DNA of 32,000 nucleotides from Flavobacteriaceae bacterium (lineage in GTDB: Bacteria > Bacteroidota > Bacteroidia > Flavobacteriales > Flavobacteriaceae), in the NCBI GenBank assembly GCA_965224465.1, contig OZ245049.1, forward strand, positions 3,870,001 to 3,902,000. Reading direction: 5' to 3'. Shown piece after piece: positions 6,110-32,000 of the stretch (within the stretch, counting starts at the first letter, position 1; the number at the start of each line of letters is the position of its first letter). Under the pieces are notes generated by a model. That model saw nothing but the letters and a program-made list of their open reading frames with translations. It was not told the origin of the DNA and did not search any database. Both the position numbers and the translations under genes were made by a program.

Positions 6110-6271
6110 TAGCATTGTTACAGATGTTTTTTGTTAATTGGGAGTATTTTAACGCATTTAAGCTCTATTGGTTAAAAATACGTTAATATGTTCTATTTCT
6201 GTAACTATTTTAAAAGATATGAGTCTTTTAAGTATACAAAAACATGTACTATTTATTTAAAACATATCATT

Positions 6272-6667
6272 ATGAGAAACTTATTTTTAACCGCTGTATT
6301 TTTAGTTAGTGTTAGTTCTATGAACGCTACGAATTTTTATTCTACTCCTGCTTTAGAGGTGATAACTGTTGAGACTTTGGTAAAACCATTAAGATTAACT
6401 GCATTATGTAAAATGGTTCAAAAAGGAAATTTAGAAGGGGTAAAAGCACTTATAGAAAATGGAGCAGATGTAAATGGAAGGTCTAAAGGGATGACTCCTT
6501 TAATGTTTGCAGCCCGTTATAACAAAGCAGAAATTGCTACGTTTTTAATTGAAAATGGCGCAAAATTAAAACTAAAAGATAAAAAGGGATTTACGGCTTT
6601 AAAACATGCAAAAATTTCTAGAGCAACAGCGTCGTATGCTGTTATTGAAAAAGCATTGTCAAAATAA
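6272..6667 (+). CDS. Secreted ankyrin-repeat protein
   Basis: The track ORF starts at 6188. I prefer the ATG at 6272, which gives signal peptide MRNLFLTAVFLVSVSSMNA. Ankyrin repeats are visible: GADVNGRSKGMTPLMFAARYNKAEIATFLIENGAKLKLKDKKGFTALKHA. Confidence 0.8.
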   Translation: MRNLFLTAVFLVSVSSMNATNFYSTPALEVITVETLVKPLRLTALCKMVQKGNLEGVKALIENGADVNGRSKGMTPLMFAARYNKAEIATFLIENGAKLKLKDKKGFTALKHAKISRATASYAVIEKALSK

Positions 6668-23360: not shown

Positions 23361-23433
<73 letters not shown>

Positions 23434-23442
23434 CTAAGCGGA

Positions 23443-23474
23443 AAGCTTCATCATAAAGATGGAGCTTTTTTTTT
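23443..23474 (+). terminator. Rho-independent terminator after the tRNA
   Basis: Stem agcttcatc / gatggagct (one G-U pair) followed by a 9-nt T-run. Confidence 0.7.
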
Positions 23475-23677
23475 GTCCATTATTTGCCTTTATAATAATC
23501 GAAGCTATCATCCCTTTTTTTTTATTCCTCTTGATTCATTTTTTACGCACCTATATTTTTTTTACGGGTATTTGTAGGTACTTCGCTCCTCTAAATAATA
23601 AATAAAATAAAAGGTTTTTAAGATGTGGTTTTTTAGGTGAAAAACACTTATTAAAAACCATGCTCAAAAATGCGCAT

Positions 23678-23730
23678 TATACCAACTTCATTTCCAGGTG
23701 ACAGTTTGTAAATGGAATTATTTTTTATTC
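23678..23730 (+). repeat. Hairpin repeat, left arm only (outer copy, 5' part)
   Basis: tataccaacttcatttccaggtgacagtttgtaaatggaattattttttattc stops where the central module would begin. Confidence 0.75.
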
Positions 23731-23891
23731 TACCAATTAAATTTCCAAGTGACGGTTTAGAAATAGAATTACTTTTTTGTTCTAGCTAGGCGGAAAATGG
23801 AAGGATAGCCTTAGCTATCGTTCTGTTTTTCAACAACGCTAGCACGTAAAATAGACTATTTATATCTGTCATTTTGGATTTTAATTGGTAG
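23731..23891 (+). repeat. Hairpin repeat, full long form (inner copy)
   Basis: taccaattaaatttccaagtgacggtttagaaatag...gctaggcggaaaatggaaggatagccttagctatcg...cgctagcacgt...tatctgtcattttggattttaattggtag. Confidence 0.85.
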
Positions 23892-24001
23892 TATAGCTAG
23901 GCGAAAAATCTTAGGGTAGCCATTAGCGATCGTTCTATTTCTATCAACGCTAGAACATATAATAAACTATTTAGATCTGTTATTTTGTATTGTAGTTGGT
24001 T
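23892..24001 (+). repeat. Hairpin repeat, central module plus right arm (outer copy, 3' part)
   Basis: tatagctaggcgaaaaatcttagggtagccattagcgatcg...cgctagaacat...atctgttattttgtattgtagttggtt. Joined to 23678-23730 it reconstitutes a full long-form copy. Confidence 0.75.
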
Positions 24002-24351
24002 GTACGTAACGAATTATAGTTTTAAGCGATAAAAACAGCTCCTAAAAAGTATCTAGTTCTGAATTATATTTTTTCCATGCATTGCCATCTTAAGGTAACG
24101 GTTTTTAAGGAGTACAAAAAAAGGAAAACACAACCAAATAATAATTATCGCATATAACTATTTTACGTACATTTGAAAAATGCTTTAGGTATGTGCAGAT
24201 AAATACTAATACCCAAATGCTACAACATCCCACGCAATAGAATGCACCATCATATTTGGGGCTGCTATTGTGGGAGCATGAGTGTTCTAGGTAATTTGAC
24301 TCACTCAAAATGTATAAACGAAACAGAAAACCAACTAGAAAATAGAAAATT

Positions 24352-25050
24352 ATGGCAGGAAAACCAGCAGCAACTGTAGGAAGTAATCATTCTTGCCCAA
24401 TGTGTAGTGGTATTACGCCGCACGTTGGTGGTCCGATTACTCAAGGCTCTCCAGATGTTTTTATTAATGATAAACCAGTGGCTCGTATCGGGGATATATG
24501 TACTTGTAATGGAGGTCCAGATACCATTGTGACAGGGAATTCAACCGTGTTAATTAATGGATTACCTATTGCTTGTGTAGGTGATCAAACTTCTCACGGG
24601 GCTGTTATAATTTCGGGCTCTTCTAACGTTATTATCGGAAGTAGAACCTCTAAGCCTGCAACCGCAGTGATGGCAGTAAAAAAAATACCTTTCCCTAAAA
24701 TCACATTTATAAACAGAGTTTTGGGTAATGCAAAAGAAGCGATTGTGAATCAGCAAGCCATAAGAGAATTAGCAGAAAACACAGAAGGCGAACCTAGAGT
24801 GTACAATTTACGTTGGCGTAGAGAAGAAACCATTATACGAGATCGTAAAATTTTTAATATGGTGATTTTAACTGCTGACGTAATTAATATCCCTGACGGT
24901 CAGGCAGCTACTGTCAAAGTATTAAAGCCTTCGAGCAACGGAAATGAAGAAGATCAAGTTGTTGAACTTACAGGAACTGTTAAAAATAAAAGAATTACCG
25001 TAGAATGGGAATTGGAAGACGCGAGTGCTAACGAAAACAGCAATAACTAA
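24352..25050 (+). CDS. PAAR-domain protein with ~130-aa C-terminal extension
   Basis: 232-aa ORF whose first ~98 aa carry three PAAR-type repeats (KPAATVGS, KPVARIGD, LPIACVGD) with Cys/His (HSCPMC, CTC, SHG). The remainder has no recognisable motif. Confidence 0.88.
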   Translation: MAGKPAATVGSNHSCPMCSGITPHVGGPITQGSPDVFINDKPVARIGDICTCNGGPDTIVTGNSTVLINGLPIACVGDQTSHGAVIISGSSNVIIGSRTSKPATAVMAVKKIPFPKITFINRVLGNAKEAIVNQQAIRELAENTEGEPRVYNLRWRREETIIRDRKIFNMVILTADVINIPDGQAATVKVLKPSSNGNEEDQVVELTGTVKNKRITVEWELEDASANENSNN

Positions 25051-25053
25051 ACT

Positions 25054-28000
25054 ATGGAAAGAAACAAGGCTCTCGAAACTTACCAAAAAGAAGCTTACAA
25101 TCAAGATCTAGCTACCTATACTTTTACAGTAGAAGTAGCAGGGAAGACATCTGATGAACGAGCAGAATTAAAAGTGAAAAAACCAGGTATTAATTTACAC
25201 TTTTTAAGGTATGGTATTTTTAGTCCACGATGGTATTATAAAACATCTTTTATTGATGTACATGCTCCAAATCTAAGTAAACCCTACGAACCTTTTCCCG
25301 TAGATAATGATCCTGAACTTATAAACCCCAACGACCCCATAGAACTTGATGAGGTTTTTGTAACAGCTGAAAGAAAAGTTCCTGCTCCATCAAGTAAAGC
25401 AAGTAAACTAAATACAGCACAGTATCGAATTACAGGAATCAATGAAGGTTATATTTATGTTCACGAAGAAGGTAAAGAAAACTTTTGGTTAGAATTTGCT
25501 GTAGATATTTATGGTTTTTTGCATCCTATTTTATGGGAACAAAATATAAATAAAGATGGAACATATAAAGATATAAGAGAGAAAATAAGTGATAAAAATC
25601 TTACCTCATACATCATAAAGGAAGGTGCAAAAATATGGGTTACATTATCTCAATCTCAATTGTCTACAAAACAATTACAAGAATATGCTAATAATCCAGA
25701 TAATTTTGATAGGCTACAATCCTTAACTTGTAATCCCATTGAAAAAATATCTGATTTAACAGAACGTAAAGAAAAATGCTATAGGTCCTTTAAAGAATTT
25801 ACTGCCTCATATACTGTTTATGAAGAAGACAATGCTAAAATATTACAATCTAGATTAGAACATATTTCAAAATTAGAATATCCTGAAAATAGAGAAGAAG
25901 AAGATGCTACCTTTGAAGACCTGTTTATTCTTTTAGAAGACCCCGTACAGTGTGCTAATGATTTAGCTACCGTTATTGATGGAGAAATGGCATGGTTAAA
26001 AGCTTTGAAGGATACTTTAAAAATAGGGAAATCTGCTTATGACGTGTATGATAAATTAATGAAGTTACCTGTTTATAATAATAGTACTATTAAAGTATCG
26101 CCAGAAGAAGCCGAAGAAATTAGCTATATTTTTGCATTAGCACTTACTACCTATAAGTTTATTTATGATAATGAAGAATTAAAAGACGATTTTAGTCGAA
26201 AACATGGTGAATGGTATTTAAATCGTGGCATAGATGACGAAAAACTAGACAAAATATTAGGGATTACACAGCGTAAAAATCAGCGTTGCCTAATCAATAA
26301 ATTGCGTGATGATTTAGGTAATTTTTTGAAAAGTGAGTATTATAACACTGCACTTAATGACTTTAAGCAAGGGTCATACCCAATGAAAGAAAGTGGTAAA
26401 GATATTATTGCTGGTCATTTAGGAACACTAGTAGTACACCCTACTATGGTAGATAGGCATTTATTGCTAACCAGTGAATACAAACCCTACGAAGATAAAT
26501 GGATAAAACAAGTACGTAAAACCATTACAGGGAATAGTGATTTTACAGCAATAAATGAACTTTTAAATATCCGTATTCCTATTAATGAGGTTGAACAACA
26601 AGATAGCAATGCTAATATTTATGCAGTCAAATTTTGTAAAAAATTCTTAAGCCATTTTGGTAAAATGACCAAAGCGTACATTGGGGTTGGCGCATTAAGT
26701 GCTACCGAAATTAAATTGGTAGACACTAAAGTAAACTATTTAAATTCCATTTCTAAAGGTGGAAAAGAAGGTCCTTTTTTTAAGATAAACCGCAAAGATT
26801 TTTTAAGAACTGCTGGTTTTGAAAAATATAAAAAGTACAGAAGTAGCAGTCACAACCACTTTACTAAAACCTATGCTTTTTTAAAAATACATGAAGAGGT
26901 ATTAAAAGAAAGTAAAGATATTGCACGTAGAACAGGTTTGGGAAAAGAAACTTCCATTGTGGTACAAGGGCGTGATCGTTTGAAGTTTTCTAAACAGCTA
27001 GAAAAAATGGTGCAAAGCCCTGAGTATAAATCGGCAGTACTCGTTTTTGAAATTTGGGCGCTTATCTCTTCTGTAGAGAAAGGAAATAAAAATGGATGGG
27101 GTTTAAATTCGAAAATAAGCCTTGGAGGAGCAATTGTAAAAACTACTGCGTCGAGTTTGAAGCTAGTTGAAGAATTTGATAAAATAAGAGGAATACAAAG
27201 AACCGATTTATTTAAAACTACAACTAAATATTTTAGTGTGGCAGGTTCCGCTTTTACAGTCTATTCAGCAACCAAAGATATGGTAAAAGCAATAAATGTC
27301 AATGATAATGATGCTGCATTGGCTTATAGTGTAGCTGCAGGGATTAGTGGGTGTTTATTAGCGGCAGAATTAGGCATTATAGCTCTTTCTACAGGGCCAT
27401 TTATTGTAGTAGCAGGTATTGGGATGCTGGTCTATGGTTTAGCTTATTATTTAACCGATAGTGATTTGGAACAATTTTTTAAGCATTACCCTTTTAGTAC
27501 CCAAATGACACATGCTACTACAAGTGATAATCCTTTTTTGTATGCGCGTGCAATGTATAAGCAACGTGATATACTTATTAAACGTTGGGAGTCTAAATAT
27601 ATGGATAGTAATAATAATACATACAAGCATCTTTTTGTAAGACTCACTAATTTATTAGCTGGAGGTATGCTTAAAATAGAAGGTAGTTCAAATCCACACT
27701 CTAAAAATGATAGAGGACATTATTTAAGTGAATCCGGGAGAAATAATGGAATTGTTCCAAATTCAGAGCTTTGGATTTCTATGGATATCCAAATCTCTTT
27801 TGCATCCTTTTTGCAAAACCAAAATCAAATTGAATATGAAGTGTACTTACTACAGAAAAAAGACCTTTTTTCTAAAACCATAAGTTACCGTATTCCCAAT
27901 AGAAAATTACAACCCTTTATGATAAAAAAAGATAATGGGACGCAACAACTGCAATTATGGTTACAAATCCCTAGATACTTAGAAGTTAAAGTTACAACAC

Positions 28001-28287
28001 CTGTAAAACAATCTGCCAATATTTCGGTTATGCTACAACAAACCCGTAAAACTACTAAAAAAGTAACTATACAACCAGATGCGAAAATTGCAGTATTGTG
28101 CAAATTTAAAGGGAATACAGAAACAATTTTCCCTTTAACACTAGACGATAAACACGGATATTTATACACCGCTATGCAAATAGGACAACGTAATGGTGAT
28201 GGTTATTTAATCCGTCGTTCTTTTGATGCCATGATTATTAAAAAAGAAGCCTTTTTAAATGCCTACCCACTTCAAAACCCTAAGTAA
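25054..28287 (+). CDS. Large putative T6SS-delivered effector, predicted membrane-targeting; function unknown
   Basis: 1077-aa ORF starting 3 nt after the PAAR stop. Hydrophobic helices cluster at aa ~660-800, including AALAYSVAAGISGCLLAAELGIIALSTGPFIVVAGIGMLVYGLAYYL. I could find no nuclease, lipase (GxSxG), peptidase or glycosidase motif. The N-terminal YRITGINEGYIYVHEEG...WLEF segment is reminiscent of VasX/BTH_I2691-class effectors, from memory and unverified. Confidence 0.75.
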   Translation: MERNKALETYQKEAYNQDLATYTFTVEVAGKTSDERAELKVKKPGINLHFLRYGIFSPRWYYKTSFIDVHAPNLSKPYEPFPVDNDPELINPNDPIELDEVFVTAERKVPAPSSKASKLNTAQYRITGINEGYIYVHEEGKENFWLEFAVDIYGFLHPILWEQNINKDGTYKDIREKISDKNLTSYIIKEGAKIWVTLSQSQLSTKQLQEYANNPDNFDRLQSLTCNPIEKISDLTERKEKCYRSFKEFTASYTVYEEDNAKILQSRLEHISKLEYPENREEEDATFEDLFILLEDPVQCANDLATVIDGEMAWLKALKDTLKIGKSAYDVYDKLMKLPVYNNSTIKVSPEEAEEISYIFALALTTYKFIYDNEELKDDFSRKHGEWYLNRGIDDEKLDKILGITQRKNQRCLINKLRDDLGNFLKSEYYNTALNDFKQGSYPMKESGKDIIAGHLGTLVVHPTMVDRHLLLTSEYKPYEDKWIKQVRKTITGNSDFTAINELLNIRIPINEVEQQDSNANIYAVKFCKKFLSHFGKMTKAYIGVGALSATEIKLVDTKVNYLNSISKGGKEGPFFKINRKDFLRTAGFEKYKKYRSSSHNHFTKTYAFLKIHEEVLKESKDIARRTGLGKETSIVVQGRDRLKFSKQLEKMVQSPEYKSAVLVFEIWALISSVEKGNKNGWGLNSKISLGGAIVKTTASSLKLVEEFDKIRGIQRTDLFKTTTKYFSVAGSAFTVYSATKDMVKAINVNDNDAALAYSVAAGISGCLLAAELGIIALSTGPFIVVAGIGMLVYGLAYYLTDSDLEQFFKHYPFSTQMTHATTSDNPFLYARAMYKQRDILIKRWESKYMDSNNNTYKHLFVRLTNLLAGGMLKIEGSSNPHSKNDRGHYLSESGRNNGIVPNSELWISMDIQISFASFLQNQNQIEYEVYLLQKKDLFSKTISYRIPNRKLQPFMIKKDNGTQQLQLWLQIPRYLEVKVTTPVKQSANISVMLQQTRKTTKKVTIQPDAKIAVLCKFKGNTETIFPLTLDDKHGYLYTAMQIGQRNGDGYLIRRSFDAMIIKKEAFLNAYPLQNPK

Positions 28288-29018
28288 TGAGTGATTTTTG
28301 GAAAAATAAACCTTTAGAAAAGGAGATACGTCATCAAATAGAGTATCACCAAATAAAACAAGAACGAATAAAGCCTAGTAAACGTTTAAATATACAAGAA
28401 GCAAATGACCTATTTTTTGTTAGGAATGTATCTAGTAATATGGGCTATGCCAAGATAAATTTTTTAACAGGTGTAGGTATTAATTTTATTATTATATTAG
28501 TTTCTCTAGGAAATGAAAAAGATGACCTTTTTGAGAATATAGGCTTAGGACTACTACCTTTCTTATTAATAAGCCTTATTTTTCTAATCATACATTTTAT
28601 GGCGCCAATAAAAGAAATAATATTAGACCGTTTACATGGCAAAATAACGTATCCTCGTTTGTTTGGTAATAAAGAACATCGTACCATACAATTTGATTCG
28701 TTGCACGTGTATGCTACTATGACCACCACTGGTGATTTTGCTGCGACAGGAAAAACAATACGTATTAAAGACAGAAAGTACAGTTATACGTGGGATTTAG
28801 AAAGTAGTAATCCAGATGAATATTGGAGTTTTATGGTGTGGTATATGGATAGGAACAGACCATTGCCTCCTGGTACTGCTTTTGATGCGTATAGGAAAAA
28901 GGACTTTGAGCGCAGAAAAACCGCTGGATTTCCTAAGCCTTTATATCCAAGCAATATAGCAACACCTGAATTTACCAAATCGCAACAAAAAGAACGGAAA
29001 TTAATTGGAGGATGGTAA
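28287..29018 (+). CDS. Putative cognate immunity protein, two-TM (paralog 1)
   Basis: 243-aa ORF whose ATG overlaps the effector stop (TAATG). Two hydrophobic helices sit at aa ~58-75 and ~85-105. The conserved C-terminal ~135 aa has no recognised motif. The immunity role is inferred from position only. Confidence 0.7.
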   Translation: MSDFWKNKPLEKEIRHQIEYHQIKQERIKPSKRLNIQEANDLFFVRNVSSNMGYAKINFLTGVGINFIIILVSLGNEKDDLFENIGLGLLPFLLISLIFLIIHFMAPIKEIILDRLHGKITYPRLFGNKEHRTIQFDSLHVYATMTTTGDFAATGKTIRIKDRKYSYTWDLESSNPDEYWSFMVWYMDRNRPLPPGTAFDAYRKKDFERRKTAGFPKPLYPSNIATPEFTKSQQKERKLIGGW

Positions 29019-29027
29019 TAAAATCGC

Positions 29028-29235
29028 ATGCAAAAATTGCCGTATTATGTAAGTTTAAAGGAAATACAGAAACTATTTTTCCTTTAACATTAGACGATAA
29101 GCAGGGTATTTATACACCGCTATGCAAATAGAACAACGCAATGGTGATGGTTATTTAATTCGTCGTTCTTTTGATGCCATGATTGTCAAAAAAACAGCCT
29201 TTTTAAATGCCTACCCACTTCAAAACCCAGAATAA
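29028..29235 (+). pseudogene. Orphan effector 3' fragment, frameshifted
   Basis: Homologous to 28078-28287 (last ~70 codons of the effector). A 1-nt deletion (gataagcagggtattt versus gatgagcacgggtattt in the next unit) breaks the frame. Confidence 0.8.
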
Positions 29236-29966
29236 TGAGTGATTTTTGGAAAAACAAACCTTTAGAAAAAGTGATACGTCACCAAATAGAGTATCACCAA
29301 ATAAAACAAGAGCGAGTAATACCAAACAAGCGCTTAGAAATACAAGAGGCAAATGACCTGTTTTTCGTAAAAAATGTATCAAGTTATATTTCTGGAGCTA
29401 AGTTGTATTTTTTTTTAGGTTTGGGTATAGTTATATTTGTTTATTTGATTACAATAGGCATGCCTAAAGAAAAAATATCATTTCCTCGATATTTAGGGTT
29501 GATTCCTTTTTTATGTATAAGTCTTATCTATTTGATTATGCATTATATGGCGCCAATAAAAGAAATAATATTAGACCGTTTACATGGCAAAATAACGTAT
29601 CCTCGTTTGTTTGGAAATAAAGAACATCGTACCATACAATTTGATTCGTTGCACGTGTATGCTACCATGACCACCACTGGTGATTTTGCTGCGACAGGAA
29701 AAACAATACGCATTAAAGACAGAAAGTACAGTTATACATGGGATTTAGAAAGTAGTAATCCAGATGAATATTGGAGTTTTATGGTGTGGTATATGGATAG
29801 GAACAGACCATTGCCTTCTGGTGCTGCTTTTGATCCGTATAGGAAAAAGGACTTTGAGCGCAGAAAAACTGCGGGATTTCCTAAGCCTTTATATCCAAGC
29901 AATATAGCAACACCTGAATTTACCAAAGCGCAACAAAAAGAACGGAAATTAATTGGAGGATGGTAA
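29235..29966 (+). CDS. Putative immunity protein paralog 2
   Basis: 243-aa ORF. Its C-terminal half is near-identical to paralog 1, its N-terminal ~44 aa are moderately conserved, and aa ~45-105 are divergent. Confidence 0.7.
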   Translation: MSDFWKNKPLEKVIRHQIEYHQIKQERVIPNKRLEIQEANDLFFVKNVSSYISGAKLYFFLGLGIVIFVYLITIGMPKEKISFPRYLGLIPFLCISLIYLIMHYMAPIKEIILDRLHGKITYPRLFGNKEHRTIQFDSLHVYATMTTTGDFAATGKTIRIKDRKYSYTWDLESSNPDEYWSFMVWYMDRNRPLPSGAAFDPYRKKDFERRKTAGFPKPLYPSNIATPEFTKAQQKERKLIGGW

Positions 29967-30184
29967 TAAAATTGCATGCAAAAATTGCCGTATTATGTAA
30001 GTTTAAAGGAAATACAGAAACTATTTTTCCTTTAACACTAGATGATGAGCACGGGTATTTATACACCGCTATGCAAATAGAACAACGCAATGGTGATGGT
30101 TATTTAATTCGTCGTTCTTTTGATGCCATGATTGTCAAAAAAACAGCCTTTTTAAATGCCTACCCACTTCAAAACCCAGAATAA
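29960..30184 (+). other. Orphan effector C-terminal fragment, open 74-codon ORF
   Basis: MVIKLHAKIAVLCKFKGNTETIFPLTLDDEHGYLYTAMQIEQRNGDGYLIRRSFDAMIVKKTAFLNAYPLQNPE matches the last ~70 aa of the 1077-aa protein. The ATG arises from the gga-tgg-taa end of paralog 2. Expression is doubtful. Confidence 0.5.
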
Positions 30185-30563
30185 TGAGTGATTTTTGGAA
30201 AAACAAACCTTTAGAAAAAGTGATACGTCACCAAATAGAGTATCATCAAATAAAACAAGAACGTATAAAACCTAATAAACGCCTAGAGATACAAGAAGCT
30301 AACGATCAATTTTTTGTAACAAATGAAACAGAAGCATTAACCGCTTTTTGGTGCTATTTTAGTATGGGTGTGGGAGGGGTGTTTTTTTTAATTATCGTAC
30401 AATACTTTGGTGTTGGGTTTGTTAATATGGTTACTTTATGGATAGGATTACCTTTTGTTTTATTAGCTTTATTTCATTTAATCATATTCTTTTTAGTACC
30501 AATAAAAGAAATAATATTAGACCGTTTACATGGCAAAATAACGTATCCTCGTTTGTTTGGTAA
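30184..30563 (+). pseudogene. Immunity paralog 3, 5' part, disrupted by IS30-family insertion
   Basis: Reads MSDFWKNKPLEKVIRHQ...ITYPRLFG and then runs into the IS (KLNSSHKRNF stop, track ORF 30184..30594). Confidence 0.85.
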
Positions 30564-31688
30564 GCTGAATTCAAGTCACAAACGCAACTTTTAGTTAAAT
30601 AATAATTGTTCCATTACAAATATAGGGTTTTGATATTTATGTCTCTTCCTAGGTCTGTTATTTAATTTTGTTTCTACCTCTTTGATTCTTTGATCTGTTA
30701 GGTTTGTAAAGTCACTTCCTTTGGCAAAATATTGTCTAATCAAACCATTTAAATTTTCGTTAGATCCTCTTTCCCAAGAGTGATATGGATGCGCAAAAAA
30801 GTAATCAATACATAAATTTTCTGCAACCTGCTCATGGCCTGCAAATTCTTTTCCATTATCAGCTGTTATAGTATGTAGATAAGGCTTCCAGTCTTCTAAT
30901 ATTTCATTGATAGCTTTAGTGACAACAACTGCTTCTTTAGAGCTTACTTTTTTCATTTTAAGCATTCCAGAAGCTCTATCATTTACGGTAAGTATGGCTT
31001 GATTATGGTTTTTACCTATGATTAAATCGACCTCTAAATCTCCAAATCGATTTCTTTGTTCAACAACTTCAGGGCGTTGTTCTATACTAATACGATTCTT
31101 TATAACCCCTCTAGAATCCTTTGATGAGCCACGTTTTCTATATCTCCTTCCCTGTCTGCGAAGGTGTGTATGTAAATCACCATCATTCCTCTTGTCTTCC
31201 CTAATATGCTGATATATACGCTCAATAGACACCGTTTCTTTACCTTGTTTTTTTAGGACACCAACTACTTGCTCAGGACTATAATCGTCTCGCAATAACA
31301 ACTCTATTGCTTGTTGAATATCTTCTGTAAAGCGTTTTCTTTTAGGCTTTTCTTTATGACGTTTAGCATACTTTTTTTGGGCTAATTCATGCTTGTAAAC
31401 TCCATTTCTTTTGTCTGAATTACGCTTAATCTCTTTGCTAATAACAGACTTGTCTTTTCCTATAGCAGCTGCTATCTCAACCTGTTTATAACCTTGTTTT
31501 AACATGCAACAAATTGTGTATCTTTGCGCTTGGGTGATGTGTTTCATACAACTTCTTTTTTCGAGATTTGAGACCGTAAGATACATATCCATCAAGACAA
31601 GAAAGGTAGGTTTTCCTACTTTTCTGTTTTGAAAATATAACCATCATAGAATCAAATCGAAAAGTTGCGTTTATTAGTTGAATTTAAG
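30564..31688 (-). mobile_element. IS30-family insertion sequence (1125 bp)
   Basis: Imperfect 29-bp terminal inverted repeats: gctgaattcaagtcacaaacgcaactttt at the left end and aaaagttgcgtttattagttgaatttaag at the right end, 23/29 matching. TAA is duplicated at 30561-30563 and 31689-31691. Removing the IS and one TAA restores ...ttt ggt aat aaa gag cat..., the sequence of the intact paralogs. Confidence 0.9.
30591..31547 (-). CDS. IS30-family transposase
   Basis: The N-terminal HTH is MKHITQAQRYTICCMLKQGYKQVEIAAAIGKDKSVISKEIKRNS and a DDE-type catalytic core follows (DLIIG...TADNGKEF...SWERGSNEN). The track ORF extends to 31595, but I prefer the ATG at 31547. Confidence 0.88.
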   Translation of the reverse strand: MKHITQAQRYTICCMLKQGYKQVEIAAAIGKDKSVISKEIKRNSDKRNGVYKHELAQKKYAKRHKEKPKRKRFTEDIQQAIELLLRDDYSPEQVVGVLKKQGKETVSIERIYQHIREDKRNDGDLHTHLRRQGRRYRKRGSSKDSRGVIKNRISIEQRPEVVEQRNRFGDLEVDLIIGKNHNQAILTVNDRASGMLKMKKVSSKEAVVVTKAINEILEDWKPYLHTITADNGKEFAGHEQVAENLCIDYFFAHPYHSWERGSNENLNGLIRQYFAKGSDFTNLTDQRIKEVETKLNNRPRKRHKYQNPIFVMEQLLFN

Positions 31689-32000
31689 TAATAAAGAGCA
31701 TCGTACCATACAATTTGATTCGTTGCACGTGTATGCTACCATGACCACCACTGGCGATTTTGCTGCGACAGGAAAAAAAATACGCATTAAAGACAGAAAG
31801 TACAGTTATACATGGGATTTAGAAAGTAGTAATCCAGATGAATATTGGAGTTTTATGGTGTGGTATATGGATAGGAACAGGCCATTGCCTCCTGGTACTG
31901 CTTTTGATCCGTATAGGAAAAAGGACTTTGAGCGCAGAAAAACCGCGGGATTTCCTAAGCCTTTATATCCAAGCAATATAGCAACACCTGAATTTACCAA
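31689..32000 (+). pseudogene. Immunity paralog 3, 3' part (continues past window end)
   Basis: In-frame continuation NKEHRTIQFDSLHVYATMTTTGDFAATGKKIRIKDRKYSYTWDLESSNPDEYWSFMVWYMDRNRPLPPG..., near-identical to paralogs 1 and 2. Confidence 0.85.

Follow-up and report, generated by a model that had tools for sequence, protein, structure and literature searches.

A putative VasX/Bte2-family pore-forming type VI effector and its hairpin-variable immunity cassettes in a Flavobacteriaceae genome

The stretch of DNA analyzed here, a window of 32,000 nucleotides (nt) from a Flavobacteriaceae bacterium (assembly GCA_965224465.1, contig OZ245049.1, positions 3,870,001 to 3,902,000; all coordinates below are counted from its first letter), raises the question of what kind of protein is encoded by its open reading frame (ORF) 25054-28287, and how the small proteins with two transmembrane (TM) segments that are encoded directly downstream relate to it. 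A preliminary description of this DNA had proposed an effector candidate of 1077 amino acids (aa) that would insert into membranes or form pores, following "colicin or VasX logic", rather than act as an enzyme. The ORF exists, with an ATG start, and on the strength of sequence comparisons and structure prediction we consider it highly probable that it encodes a large antibacterial effector of the T6SS (type VI secretion system), one that forms pores and is not an enzyme, belonging to the VasX/BTH_I2691 family and of the Bte2 type. Earlier publications already cover this family and its branch in Bacteroidota, as well as the PAAR partner and the occurrence of orthologs in the marine genera compared below; new here are the mapped polymorphic segment of the toxin, the immunity paralogs that vary in a hairpin, and the array of stub-plus-immunity cassettes.

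Family assignment of the toxin candidate

Four tests point to membership of the family. The Pfam model VasX_N (PF20249) matches toxin residues 113-217 with 41.9 bits (E = 1.4e-10), against a gathering score of 27, and model positions 647-837 of the NCBIfam model BTH_I2691_fam (NF041559) match residues 648-817 with 59.3 bits. For a match to solved structures, a family profile was required rather than the single sequence; this profile, made from 119 sequences, matches exactly two solved toxins, Tke5 (9r8g_A) and Ptx2 (9qpv_A), with E = 1.5e-18 each. The stretches that align with the MIX domain of Tke5 and that of Ptx2 have E-values of 1.7e-11 and 2.3e-17, respectively, and in Tke5 a second stretch, 489-826, covers the transmembrane region. 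The fourth test is the fold search described below. An exhaustive hidden Markov model (HMM) search of representative proteins, from which the depth of the family is taken, returned, at E <= 1e-3, 317 clusters defined at 50% identity, and the full-length relatives among the matches listed measure around 1000-1100 aa; a word-indexed protein search yielded 13 proteins.

Toxins of this family have a MIX domain at the N terminus, then a helical scaffold that surrounds a transmembrane domain, and an immunoglobulin (Ig)-like domain at the C terminus; acting from the periplasmic side, their small, ion-selective pores dissipate the membrane potential (PMC12909789, PMC12718326, bioRxiv 10.1101/2025.04.30.651342). 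The layout of the window toxin is that of the same three parts: an N-terminal MIX/VasX_N domain, a helical scaffold holding the transmembrane domain, and a C-terminal beta domain. Equivalents of the canonical MIX motifs shhPhR, hRxGhhYhh and hhF/YSxxxWS/T (PMC12909789) are found at the aligned positions, namely LHFLR (48-52), INEGYIYVH (129-137) and VTLSQSQLS (196-204). Within the second of these, G132 and Y135 are invariant, and the broader toxin-family consensus still contains WxAYSxVQWS.

A conserved hydrophobic hairpin

The preliminary description had listed four hydrophobic segments inside an otherwise highly charged, helix-rich protein. All four were located: AVLVFEIWALISSV at residues 661-674 (nt 27034-27075), SLGGAIVKTTASSL at residues 689-702, YFSVAGSAFTVYSA at residues 726-739, and a Gly/Ala-rich block at residues 754-800 (nt 27313-27453). 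Only this last block is hydrophobic enough to be of transmembrane grade, with a 19-residue Kyte-Doolittle peak of 2.22; its composition includes 10 Ala, 8 Leu and 7 Gly in 48 residues, and residues 752-801 are 4% charged. The other three are predicted helices with a mean hydropathy of approximately 0-0.14 and 6-8 charged residues apiece, and are therefore better described as moderately hydrophobic segments that do not span a membrane alone. D, E, K and R make up 26% of the whole toxin, and the structure model described below is helical over residues 255-869.

The hairpin is not a product of chance, because the 40-residue hydropathy maximum of the toxin (1.84) exceeds that of shuffled sequences (mean 0.85 over 2000 shuffles), and because in 69 of 69 relatives, with identities down to 18%, the alignment places the most hydrophobic 40-residue window at one and the same point (query 774-789). 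It is flanked by the acidic conserved motifs NDNDAA (750-755) and TDSDLE (801-806), and in the family alignment D751 is invariant, while D753, D802 and K810 are nearly so. Invariant residues are concentrated in the MIX and transmembrane regions, and the window toxin retains every family-invariant one.

Predicted structure and search for enzymatic signatures

The preliminary description had proposed structure prediction followed by a Foldseek search. An AlphaFold2 (AF2) model calculated from a 69-sequence alignment reached a predicted local distance difference test (pLDDT) score of 73.6 and a predicted template modelling (pTM) score of 0.72, and has a beta/helical/beta layout with strands at residues 18-225, helices at 255-869 and strands at 872-1062; a model from a 10-sequence alignment (pLDDT 44.7) was too poor for a fold search. 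In the better model, pLDDT is mostly 82-93 at residues 110-230 and mostly 70-89 at strands 872-1062. When it was compared to the PDB with Foldseek, only two matches were found at E <= 0.001, again Tke5 (8.9e-10) and Ptx2 (4.9e-9), both with a probability of 1.00 over approximately 1200 aligned columns, and the next match had E = 0.065. Matches of Ig domains to the C-terminal domain were weak (E 0.5-1.5); going by the model and the published family architecture (PMC12909789, PMC12718326), the C-terminal beta domain is likely the Ig-like domain of the family.

By eye, no catalytic motif had been noticed before, and a regular-expression search of the toxin likewise found no GxSxG, HExxH, HxxD, HxKxxxxD, Walker A or CxxC. 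Searches of Pfam, NCBIfam and PDB sequences with the toxin returned no enzyme family, and neither a colicin nor an enzyme fold is present among the 50 Foldseek PDB matches listed. Colicins were also absent from the Pfam matches at E <= 0.1, and no Rhs/YD repeats or Tse5-, Tse4- or Ssp6-type match was found in Pfam or NCBIfam, proteins of that kind differing in size and architecture as well. Homology to colicins, an enzymatic toxin and an Rhs-type pore former were accordingly each rejected, having no HMM, motif or fold support. With no confident enzymatic match in Pfam, NCBIfam, PDB or Foldseek, the pore-forming, non-enzymatic reading of the preliminary description holds up, and so does the VasX part of its "colicin or VasX logic", with homology seen by VasX_N, BTH_I2691_fam, the family profile and Foldseek, whereas the colicin part survives by analogy only.

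The approximately 45% of the sequence (scaffold and C-terminal domain) to which no activity is assigned, and the poorly modelled residues 588-655, could in principle conceal an enzyme (a lipase, for example, a phospholipase or a hydrolase acting on peptidoglycan) too divergent to be recognized, whose hydrophobic block would merely be a membrane anchor. We regard this as barely conceivable: besides the lack of an enzyme family or catalytic motif, the only significant Foldseek matches are two non-enzymatic pore formers, the solved homologs have no active site, and the invariant residues cluster in the MIX and transmembrane regions.

The PAAR partner and related loci

The gene directly upstream of the toxin encodes a PAAR spike-tip protein whose stop codon lies 3 nt ahead of the toxin start, resulting in the apparent operon order of a Pte2-type PAAR, the toxin and two-TM immunity genes. 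Residues 5-222 of the PAAR protein match a PAAR protein of Bacteroides fragilis, 8gra_J (8GRA), over its full length with E = 5.7e-42, and that protein has been named as the PAAR for Bte2 (PMC13402684). Judged from this similarity, the window PAAR is likely a Pte2-type carrier of the toxin. All PAAR proteins linked to a toxin in the related loci share its C-terminal extension, which gave no match in the other PAAR proteins of three of these loci (L016, L021 and L028). The idea that the extension is a new adaptor was dropped, as the B. fragilis PAAR, whose structure is known already, is matched by the protein as a whole.

The related loci comprise 29 genome loci from Tenacibaculum, Aquimarina, Olleya, Hyunsoonleella, Spongiivirga, Marinilabiliaceae and Ancylomarina. 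A PAAR gene stands upstream of the toxin in 25/29 (immediately upstream in 21), and most of the loci have no adaptor gene between the two. One to seven immunity paralogs follow the toxin, likewise in 25/29 loci; 4 loci without an immunity match stop at or just past the toxin. Ratner 2025 (PMC12718326, Dataset S3) lists Aquimarina, Olleya aquimaris, Spongiivirga citrea and several Tenacibaculum spp. as carriers of Bte2 orthologs and immunity genes without rnf, and two of these species are represented in our comparison, Olleya aquimaris by toxin homolog P0012 and Spongiivirga citrea by locus L018.

Three further observations were made on these loci. First, one Flavobacteriaceae metagenome-assembled genome carries toxin paralogs on two contigs (L016 5995-9072 and L021 5995-9129), which agree at 100% of positions in their first ~240 residues (97% to ~280), including the MIX domain, and then mostly 5-60% identical; this pattern suggests, at the level of sequence, recombination that retains the loading domain and exchanges the toxin body. 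Second, the module of a Tenacibaculum locus (L002 1-9200) directly follows conjugation genes (for a relaxase, a type IV secretion system coupling protein, ParA, DUF4134 and DUF3408), so that an integrative conjugative element is its probable carrier. Third, polymorphic-toxin modules lie near the VasX-like modules (L001 6478-7710; L016 373-3615; L021 364-3606), including a Tox-REase-5/Imm52 pair and a 1080-aa PAAR-Het-C fusion, and the regions around VasX-like modules appear to be effector islands.

Comparison with known systems

The closest parallel in organization is the Bte2/Pte2/Bti2 module in T6SS locus II of B. fragilis GA3, which shares the phylum-level T6SSiii setting and the order of a PAAR gene with C-terminal extension, a VasX-like toxin and a membrane immunity gene. 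As described (PMC12718326), Bte2 also has the MIX, helical-TM and C-terminal beta architecture of the window toxin, which is most likely a Bte2-type member. The two modules differ in context, as that of the window is an isolated island beside tRNA-Met with an array of orphan immunity genes, rather than part of the GA3 T6SS locus, and probably also in that the dependence of Bte2 on the Rnf complex as receptor does not apply, given that carriers in these marine genera are without rnf (PMC12718326).

Tke5 of Pseudomonas putida (PDB 9R8G) and Ptx2 of P. aeruginosa (PDB 9QPV) resemble the window toxin in domain order and overall size, in having a hydrophobic transmembrane domain late in the helical region, and in having an immunity gene immediately downstream. 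Sequence identity is only ~10%, however, and the MIX signature residues have diverged in the window toxin. Moreover, the two proteobacterial toxins are loaded onto VgrG through a DUF4123/Tap adaptor, whereas the partner here is a PAAR protein with a C-terminal extension. The toxin family (Pfam VasX_N) was founded on VasX of Vibrio cholerae, which has TsiV2 as its immunity protein; phylum and T6SS subtype differ from those of the window module. Pore-forming colicins (A, E1, Ia and N) follow the same logic, in that a hydrophobic helical hairpin is hidden among polar helices in the soluble form, the inner membrane is depolarized from the periplasmic side, and an integral-membrane immunity protein recognizes the inserted toxin; they have no homology to the window toxin, whose scaffold is much larger and which would be delivered by a T6SS instead of receptor/Tol/Ton import. 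The relation to VasX, Tke5 and Ptx2 is thus one of homology, and that to colicins one of analogy only.

Several points weigh against the assignment to the family and its Bte2-type branch. The match to NF041559 stays far below the curated cutoff of 150 and covers only the transmembrane-domain part of the model, and a search of PDB sequences with the toxin as a single sequence gave no match at E <= 1. The MIX signature residues are partly replaced, with F for P in LHFLR, N for R in INEGYIYVH, and L for Y/F as well as L for W in VTLSQSQLS. Because the NCBI subfamily cutoff is missed and the MIX residues are partly substituted, we take the window toxin, on its sequence, to be a member of a divergent branch that is outside NCBI's proteobacterial subfamily model. 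In the structure model, pLDDT is only 50-67 in the transmembrane domain and below 50 at residues 588-655, and the Foldseek matches have TM-scores of 0.20-0.33 and a root-mean-square deviation of 27-32 A. With such low TM-scores and high deviations the match is therefore architectural and not a rigid superposition; low TM-scores fit multidomain proteins with a mobile transmembrane domain. The likeness to Bte2 is drawn from module features and the published description of its architecture. Finally, PAAR is the only T6SS structural gene in the window, so that a functional T6SS in the genome is assumed, and the putative function of the toxin is read from characterized relatives.

Immunity genes and the cassette array

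As the preliminary description had said of the neighboring immunity candidates, each of the two 243-aa ORFs downstream of the toxin has two predicted TM segments. The ATG of the first gene, imm1, overlaps the TAA stop of the toxin by one base (TAATG). The imm1 protein has 11 K/R before TM1, an acidic 11-residue loop and 24 K/R after TM2, and this distribution of charges suggests an N-in/C-in topology. Compared to the NCBIfam model bfi2_fam, the immunity proteins of the window score weakly (E = 4.8e-3 and 4.2e-4; 16-20 bits against an equivalog cutoff of 350). The model is matched by 16/27 members of the immunity family (best E = 3.2e-8), with matches spanning only TM2 and the region after it. 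On these scores the window proteins would be distant relatives of the Bti2/Bfi2 type at most. A profile of the immunity family found no solved relative in the PDB.

Three tandem cassettes of ~948 bp, starting at 28079, 29027 and 29976, fill the end of the window (28079-32000), each consisting of the last ~210 nt of the toxin gene and an immunity gene (Table 1). Cassette 1 is the genuine 3' end of the toxin gene with imm1, and the toxin remnant of the third cassette, ORF74, is probably not a functional gene. The flanks of the cassettes are nearly identical, while the cores coding for the TM hairpin are ~50% divergent; likewise, the three immunity proteins are nearly identical except at residues 46-106 (TM hairpin plus loop), where they are very different. 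The hairpin of imm2 shares 46% identity with that of imm1 and 97% with that of i1, the toxin-adjacent immunity protein of locus L004. The third immunity gene is split by an insertion sequence (IS), whose transposase ORF (30591-31595, minus strand) matches Pfam HTH_38 above its gathering score and rve weakly, below its gathering score. Auxiliary T6SS clusters of V. cholerae contain orphan immunity arrays with effector 3'-end remnants, formed by sequential displacement, and the window array is similar, differing in that its paralogs have nearly identical flanks and vary almost only in the TM hairpin.

Separately, residues 107-243 of the immunity proteins, presumably a cytoplasmic C-terminal domain, are very strongly conserved across genera, with W185, M187, D188, N190-P194, G196, R209, R210, G214-P216 and the terminal W243 invariant; this domain has no Pfam match and no solved relative.

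The frameshift in stub 2 and the splitting of imm3 might also be taken as signs that the whole island, which adjoins tRNA-Met and within the window is remote from T6SS genes, is a decaying relic with no T6SS to fire its toxin, and fragmentary homologs do occur elsewhere (e.g., P0007 of 636 aa, and the split ORFs of loci L011 and L015). We think this very unlikely, considering that decay is confined to the orphan cassettes, as expected of dispensable genes, whereas PAAR, toxin and imm1 are intact and tightly coupled, and the toxin has kept all family-invariant residues.

Table 1. Coordinates of the toxin module, its predicted domains and adjoining features within the window.
Feature	Position	Strand	Support
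tRNA-Met (CAT)	23361..23434	+	ARAGORN; Rfam RF00005, 64.9 bits
PAAR spike-tip protein, 232 aa, with ~130-aa C-terminal extension	24352..25050	+	Pfam PAAR_motif, E = 1e-26
VasX/Bte2-family pore-forming T6SS effector (putative)	25054..28287	+	ATG start, 1077 aa
N-terminal beta-rich MIX/VasX_N domain (residues ~1-250)	25054..25803	+	Pfam PF20249; profile alignment; AF2
Alpha-helical scaffold (residues ~251-655)	25804..27018	+	AF2 helices 255-653; Tke5 and Ptx2 aligned by Foldseek over the full length
Putative transmembrane/pore-forming domain (residues 656-811)	27019..27486	+	Three moderately hydrophobic helices plus hairpin
Hypervariable helix-loop-helix (residues ~671-727), candidate immunity-specificity determinant	27064..27234	+	Allele comparison
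Conserved hydrophobic helical hairpin (residues 752-800)	27307..27453	+	Kyte-Doolittle peak; positional conservation
C-terminal beta-rich domain (residues ~872-1077)	27667..28284	+	AF2 strands 872-1062
imm1, toxin-adjacent presumed cognate immunity gene, 243 aa, two TM	28287..29018	+	TM prediction; position
Stub 2, degraded copy of the last ~70 toxin codons, frameshifted by a 1-nt deletion	29027..29234	+	
imm2, intact orphan immunity gene, 243 aa	29235..29966	+	
ORF74 (stub 3), toxin C-terminus remnant with intact frame, 74 aa	29960..30184	+	
imm3, 5' part, orphan immunity gene broken after ~residue 128	30184..30567	+	
IS30-family-like insertion sequence	30568..31684	-	25-nt inverted repeats 30568-30592 and 31660-31684
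imm3, 3' part, resuming after the IS and passing the window end	31688..32000	+	DNA 97% identical to imm1 positions 380-692

Matching polymorphism of toxin and immunity protein

Among the five closest toxins, residues 661-735 share 48-74% identity, compared to 73-99% in other regions and 84-99% in the hairpin region that follows (736-810). The same segment stands out in other comparisons. Between the toxins of T. discolor and T. larymnensis, identity is 0.80 in the variable segment and 0.74 at residues 881-920, these being the two least conserved regions, and ~0.95 or more in most others; in the group formed by the toxins of loci L024, L025 and L026, the variable segment is the least conserved region (0.63 vs ~0.93).

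The clearest case is this last group of three Tenacibaculum loci, in which toxin segment and immunity hairpin change together. The toxins of L024 and L026 are 97% identical at residues 665-735 and their adjacent immunity hairpins 95%, while the L025 toxin is 53% identical at 665-735 (86-94% in other regions) and its immunity hairpin 41-43%. In addition, an orphan immunity protein of L026 (i2) is 100% identical to the toxin-adjacent protein of L025 (i1). Against this, a Mantel test over the six closest loci, with adjacent immunity proteins, gave no significant correlation between toxin segment and hairpin (r = 0.32, p = 0.12). Significance was reached only when L004 was re-paired post hoc, a result on which we do not rely. 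We therefore regard the coupling between the two, as seen in these sequences, as suggestive.

Based on these patterns, we tentatively propose, as a possibility somewhat short of an even chance, that immunity is decided in the membrane, where the hypervariable TM hairpin of the immunity protein would recognize toxin residues ~671-727, the variable helix-loop-helix just ahead of the conserved hydrophobic hairpin, and that marine Flavobacteriaceae form compatibility groups of toxin alleles while hoarding orphan hairpin variants. For Ptx2, immunity binding has been proposed by its authors to occur at a "sensor region" of the scaffold, whereas the polymorphism in the window points to the transmembrane domain.

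The tight linkage of inner-membrane immunity genes to the toxin, and orphan immunity arrays that match the alleles of other strains, also bear on the nature of the target. A purely anti-eukaryotic toxin needs no immunity, and both features therefore indicate conflict between bacteria. To our knowledge, no anti-eukaryotic effector of T6SSiii has been described. That the toxin should act mainly or additionally on eukaryotic host membranes is for these reasons quite improbable in our view, even though some members of Aquimarina and Tenacibaculum cause disease in fish, crustaceans and algae, VasX kills Dictyostelium according to work cited in PMC12909789, and PMC9804302 describes the carrier genera as marine opportunistic pathogens.

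Proposed mode of action

By extension from VasX, Ptx2, Tke5 and Bte2, the MIX domain would dock the toxin on the PAAR/VgrG spike, and the C-terminal extension of the PAAR protein may contribute to docking. Following what is known of characterized members, the T6SS would then fire the toxin into the periplasm of a neighbor in a closed, soluble form, in which the scaffold shields the hairpin (752-800). The scaffold would open on touching the inner membrane or a receptor, the hairpin and its flanking helices (656-811) would insert, and the resulting small, ion-selective pores would collapse the membrane potential, so that growth stops. Kin would be protected by the inner-membrane immunity protein, with both ends probably cytoplasmic, whose hypervariable TM hairpin, as the comparative data lead us to expect, probably recognizes the toxin at ~671-727, either within the membrane or at its surface; both additional cassettes would then serve as orphan immunity against toxin alleles of other strains.

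Whether opening takes a specific inner-membrane receptor is a matter of the mechanism and leaves the family assignment as it is. Intoxication by Bte2 strictly requires Rnf as a physical receptor (PMC12718326), and the window module has a Pte2-type PAAR as well as an immunity family that may be distantly related to Bti2. The second most variable segment of the toxin, ~881-920, lies in the C-terminal domain, for which the Tke5 paper proposes a role in receptor binding. Carriers from Aquimarina, Olleya, Tenacibaculum and Spongiivirga have immunity genes and no rnf (PMC12718326, Dataset S3), so that in these rnf-less marine Flavobacteriaceae the receptor could be another complex, Na+-NQR being one speculative candidate. 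On the other hand, Ratner et al. consider the use of Rnf to be restricted to gut Bacteroidales and VasX toxins elsewhere to be probably independent of it (PMC12718326), and V. cholerae VasX kills eukaryotic cells too, which argues against an obligatory specific receptor. The window itself contains neither rnf nor nqr genes and offers nothing on a receptor, and the NQR idea is our own speculation. Taken together, we consider the requirement for such a receptor rather unlikely for this toxin.

Flanking DNA

The tRNA-Met gene, followed by a terminator-like hairpin at 23440-23470, marks the housekeeping side of the toxin island, and ~900 nt of non-coding DNA come after it. This non-coding stretch (to 24351) holds two families of direct repeats with a spacing of 111 nt (23783-24004), as well as a 28-nt inverted repeat, and the repeat-bearing DNA of 23361-24351 could be an integration scar of the island or a regulatory region. 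A scan for sigma-70 promoters was uninformative, with 28 sites vs 31 expected, and does not cover promoters of Bacteroidota. Further away, amid housekeeping genes, 6188-6667 encodes a 159-aa ankyrin-repeat protein (Pfam Ank_2, E = 3e-27); such proteins are uncommon in bacteria.

Implications

With this assignment, a hypothetical protein and its neighbors can be annotated as a complete T6SS module of toxin, carrier and immunity from marine Flavobacteriaceae, a group that includes aquaculture pathogens; by its closest homologs, the organism is probably an Aquimarina. The natural variation mapped here, in a toxin segment beside a conserved hairpin, in the TM hairpin of the immunity protein and in orphan immunity genes matching alleles of other strains, bears on how immunity works in this family. 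In other respects the module is typical of a family characterized only recently. If immunity is decided by the TM hairpin in the membrane, the site of immunity would differ from the scaffold "sensor region" proposed for Ptx2/Pti2, and the orphan hairpin variants kept downstream of the toxin would be a record of the competitors that these bacteria have met.

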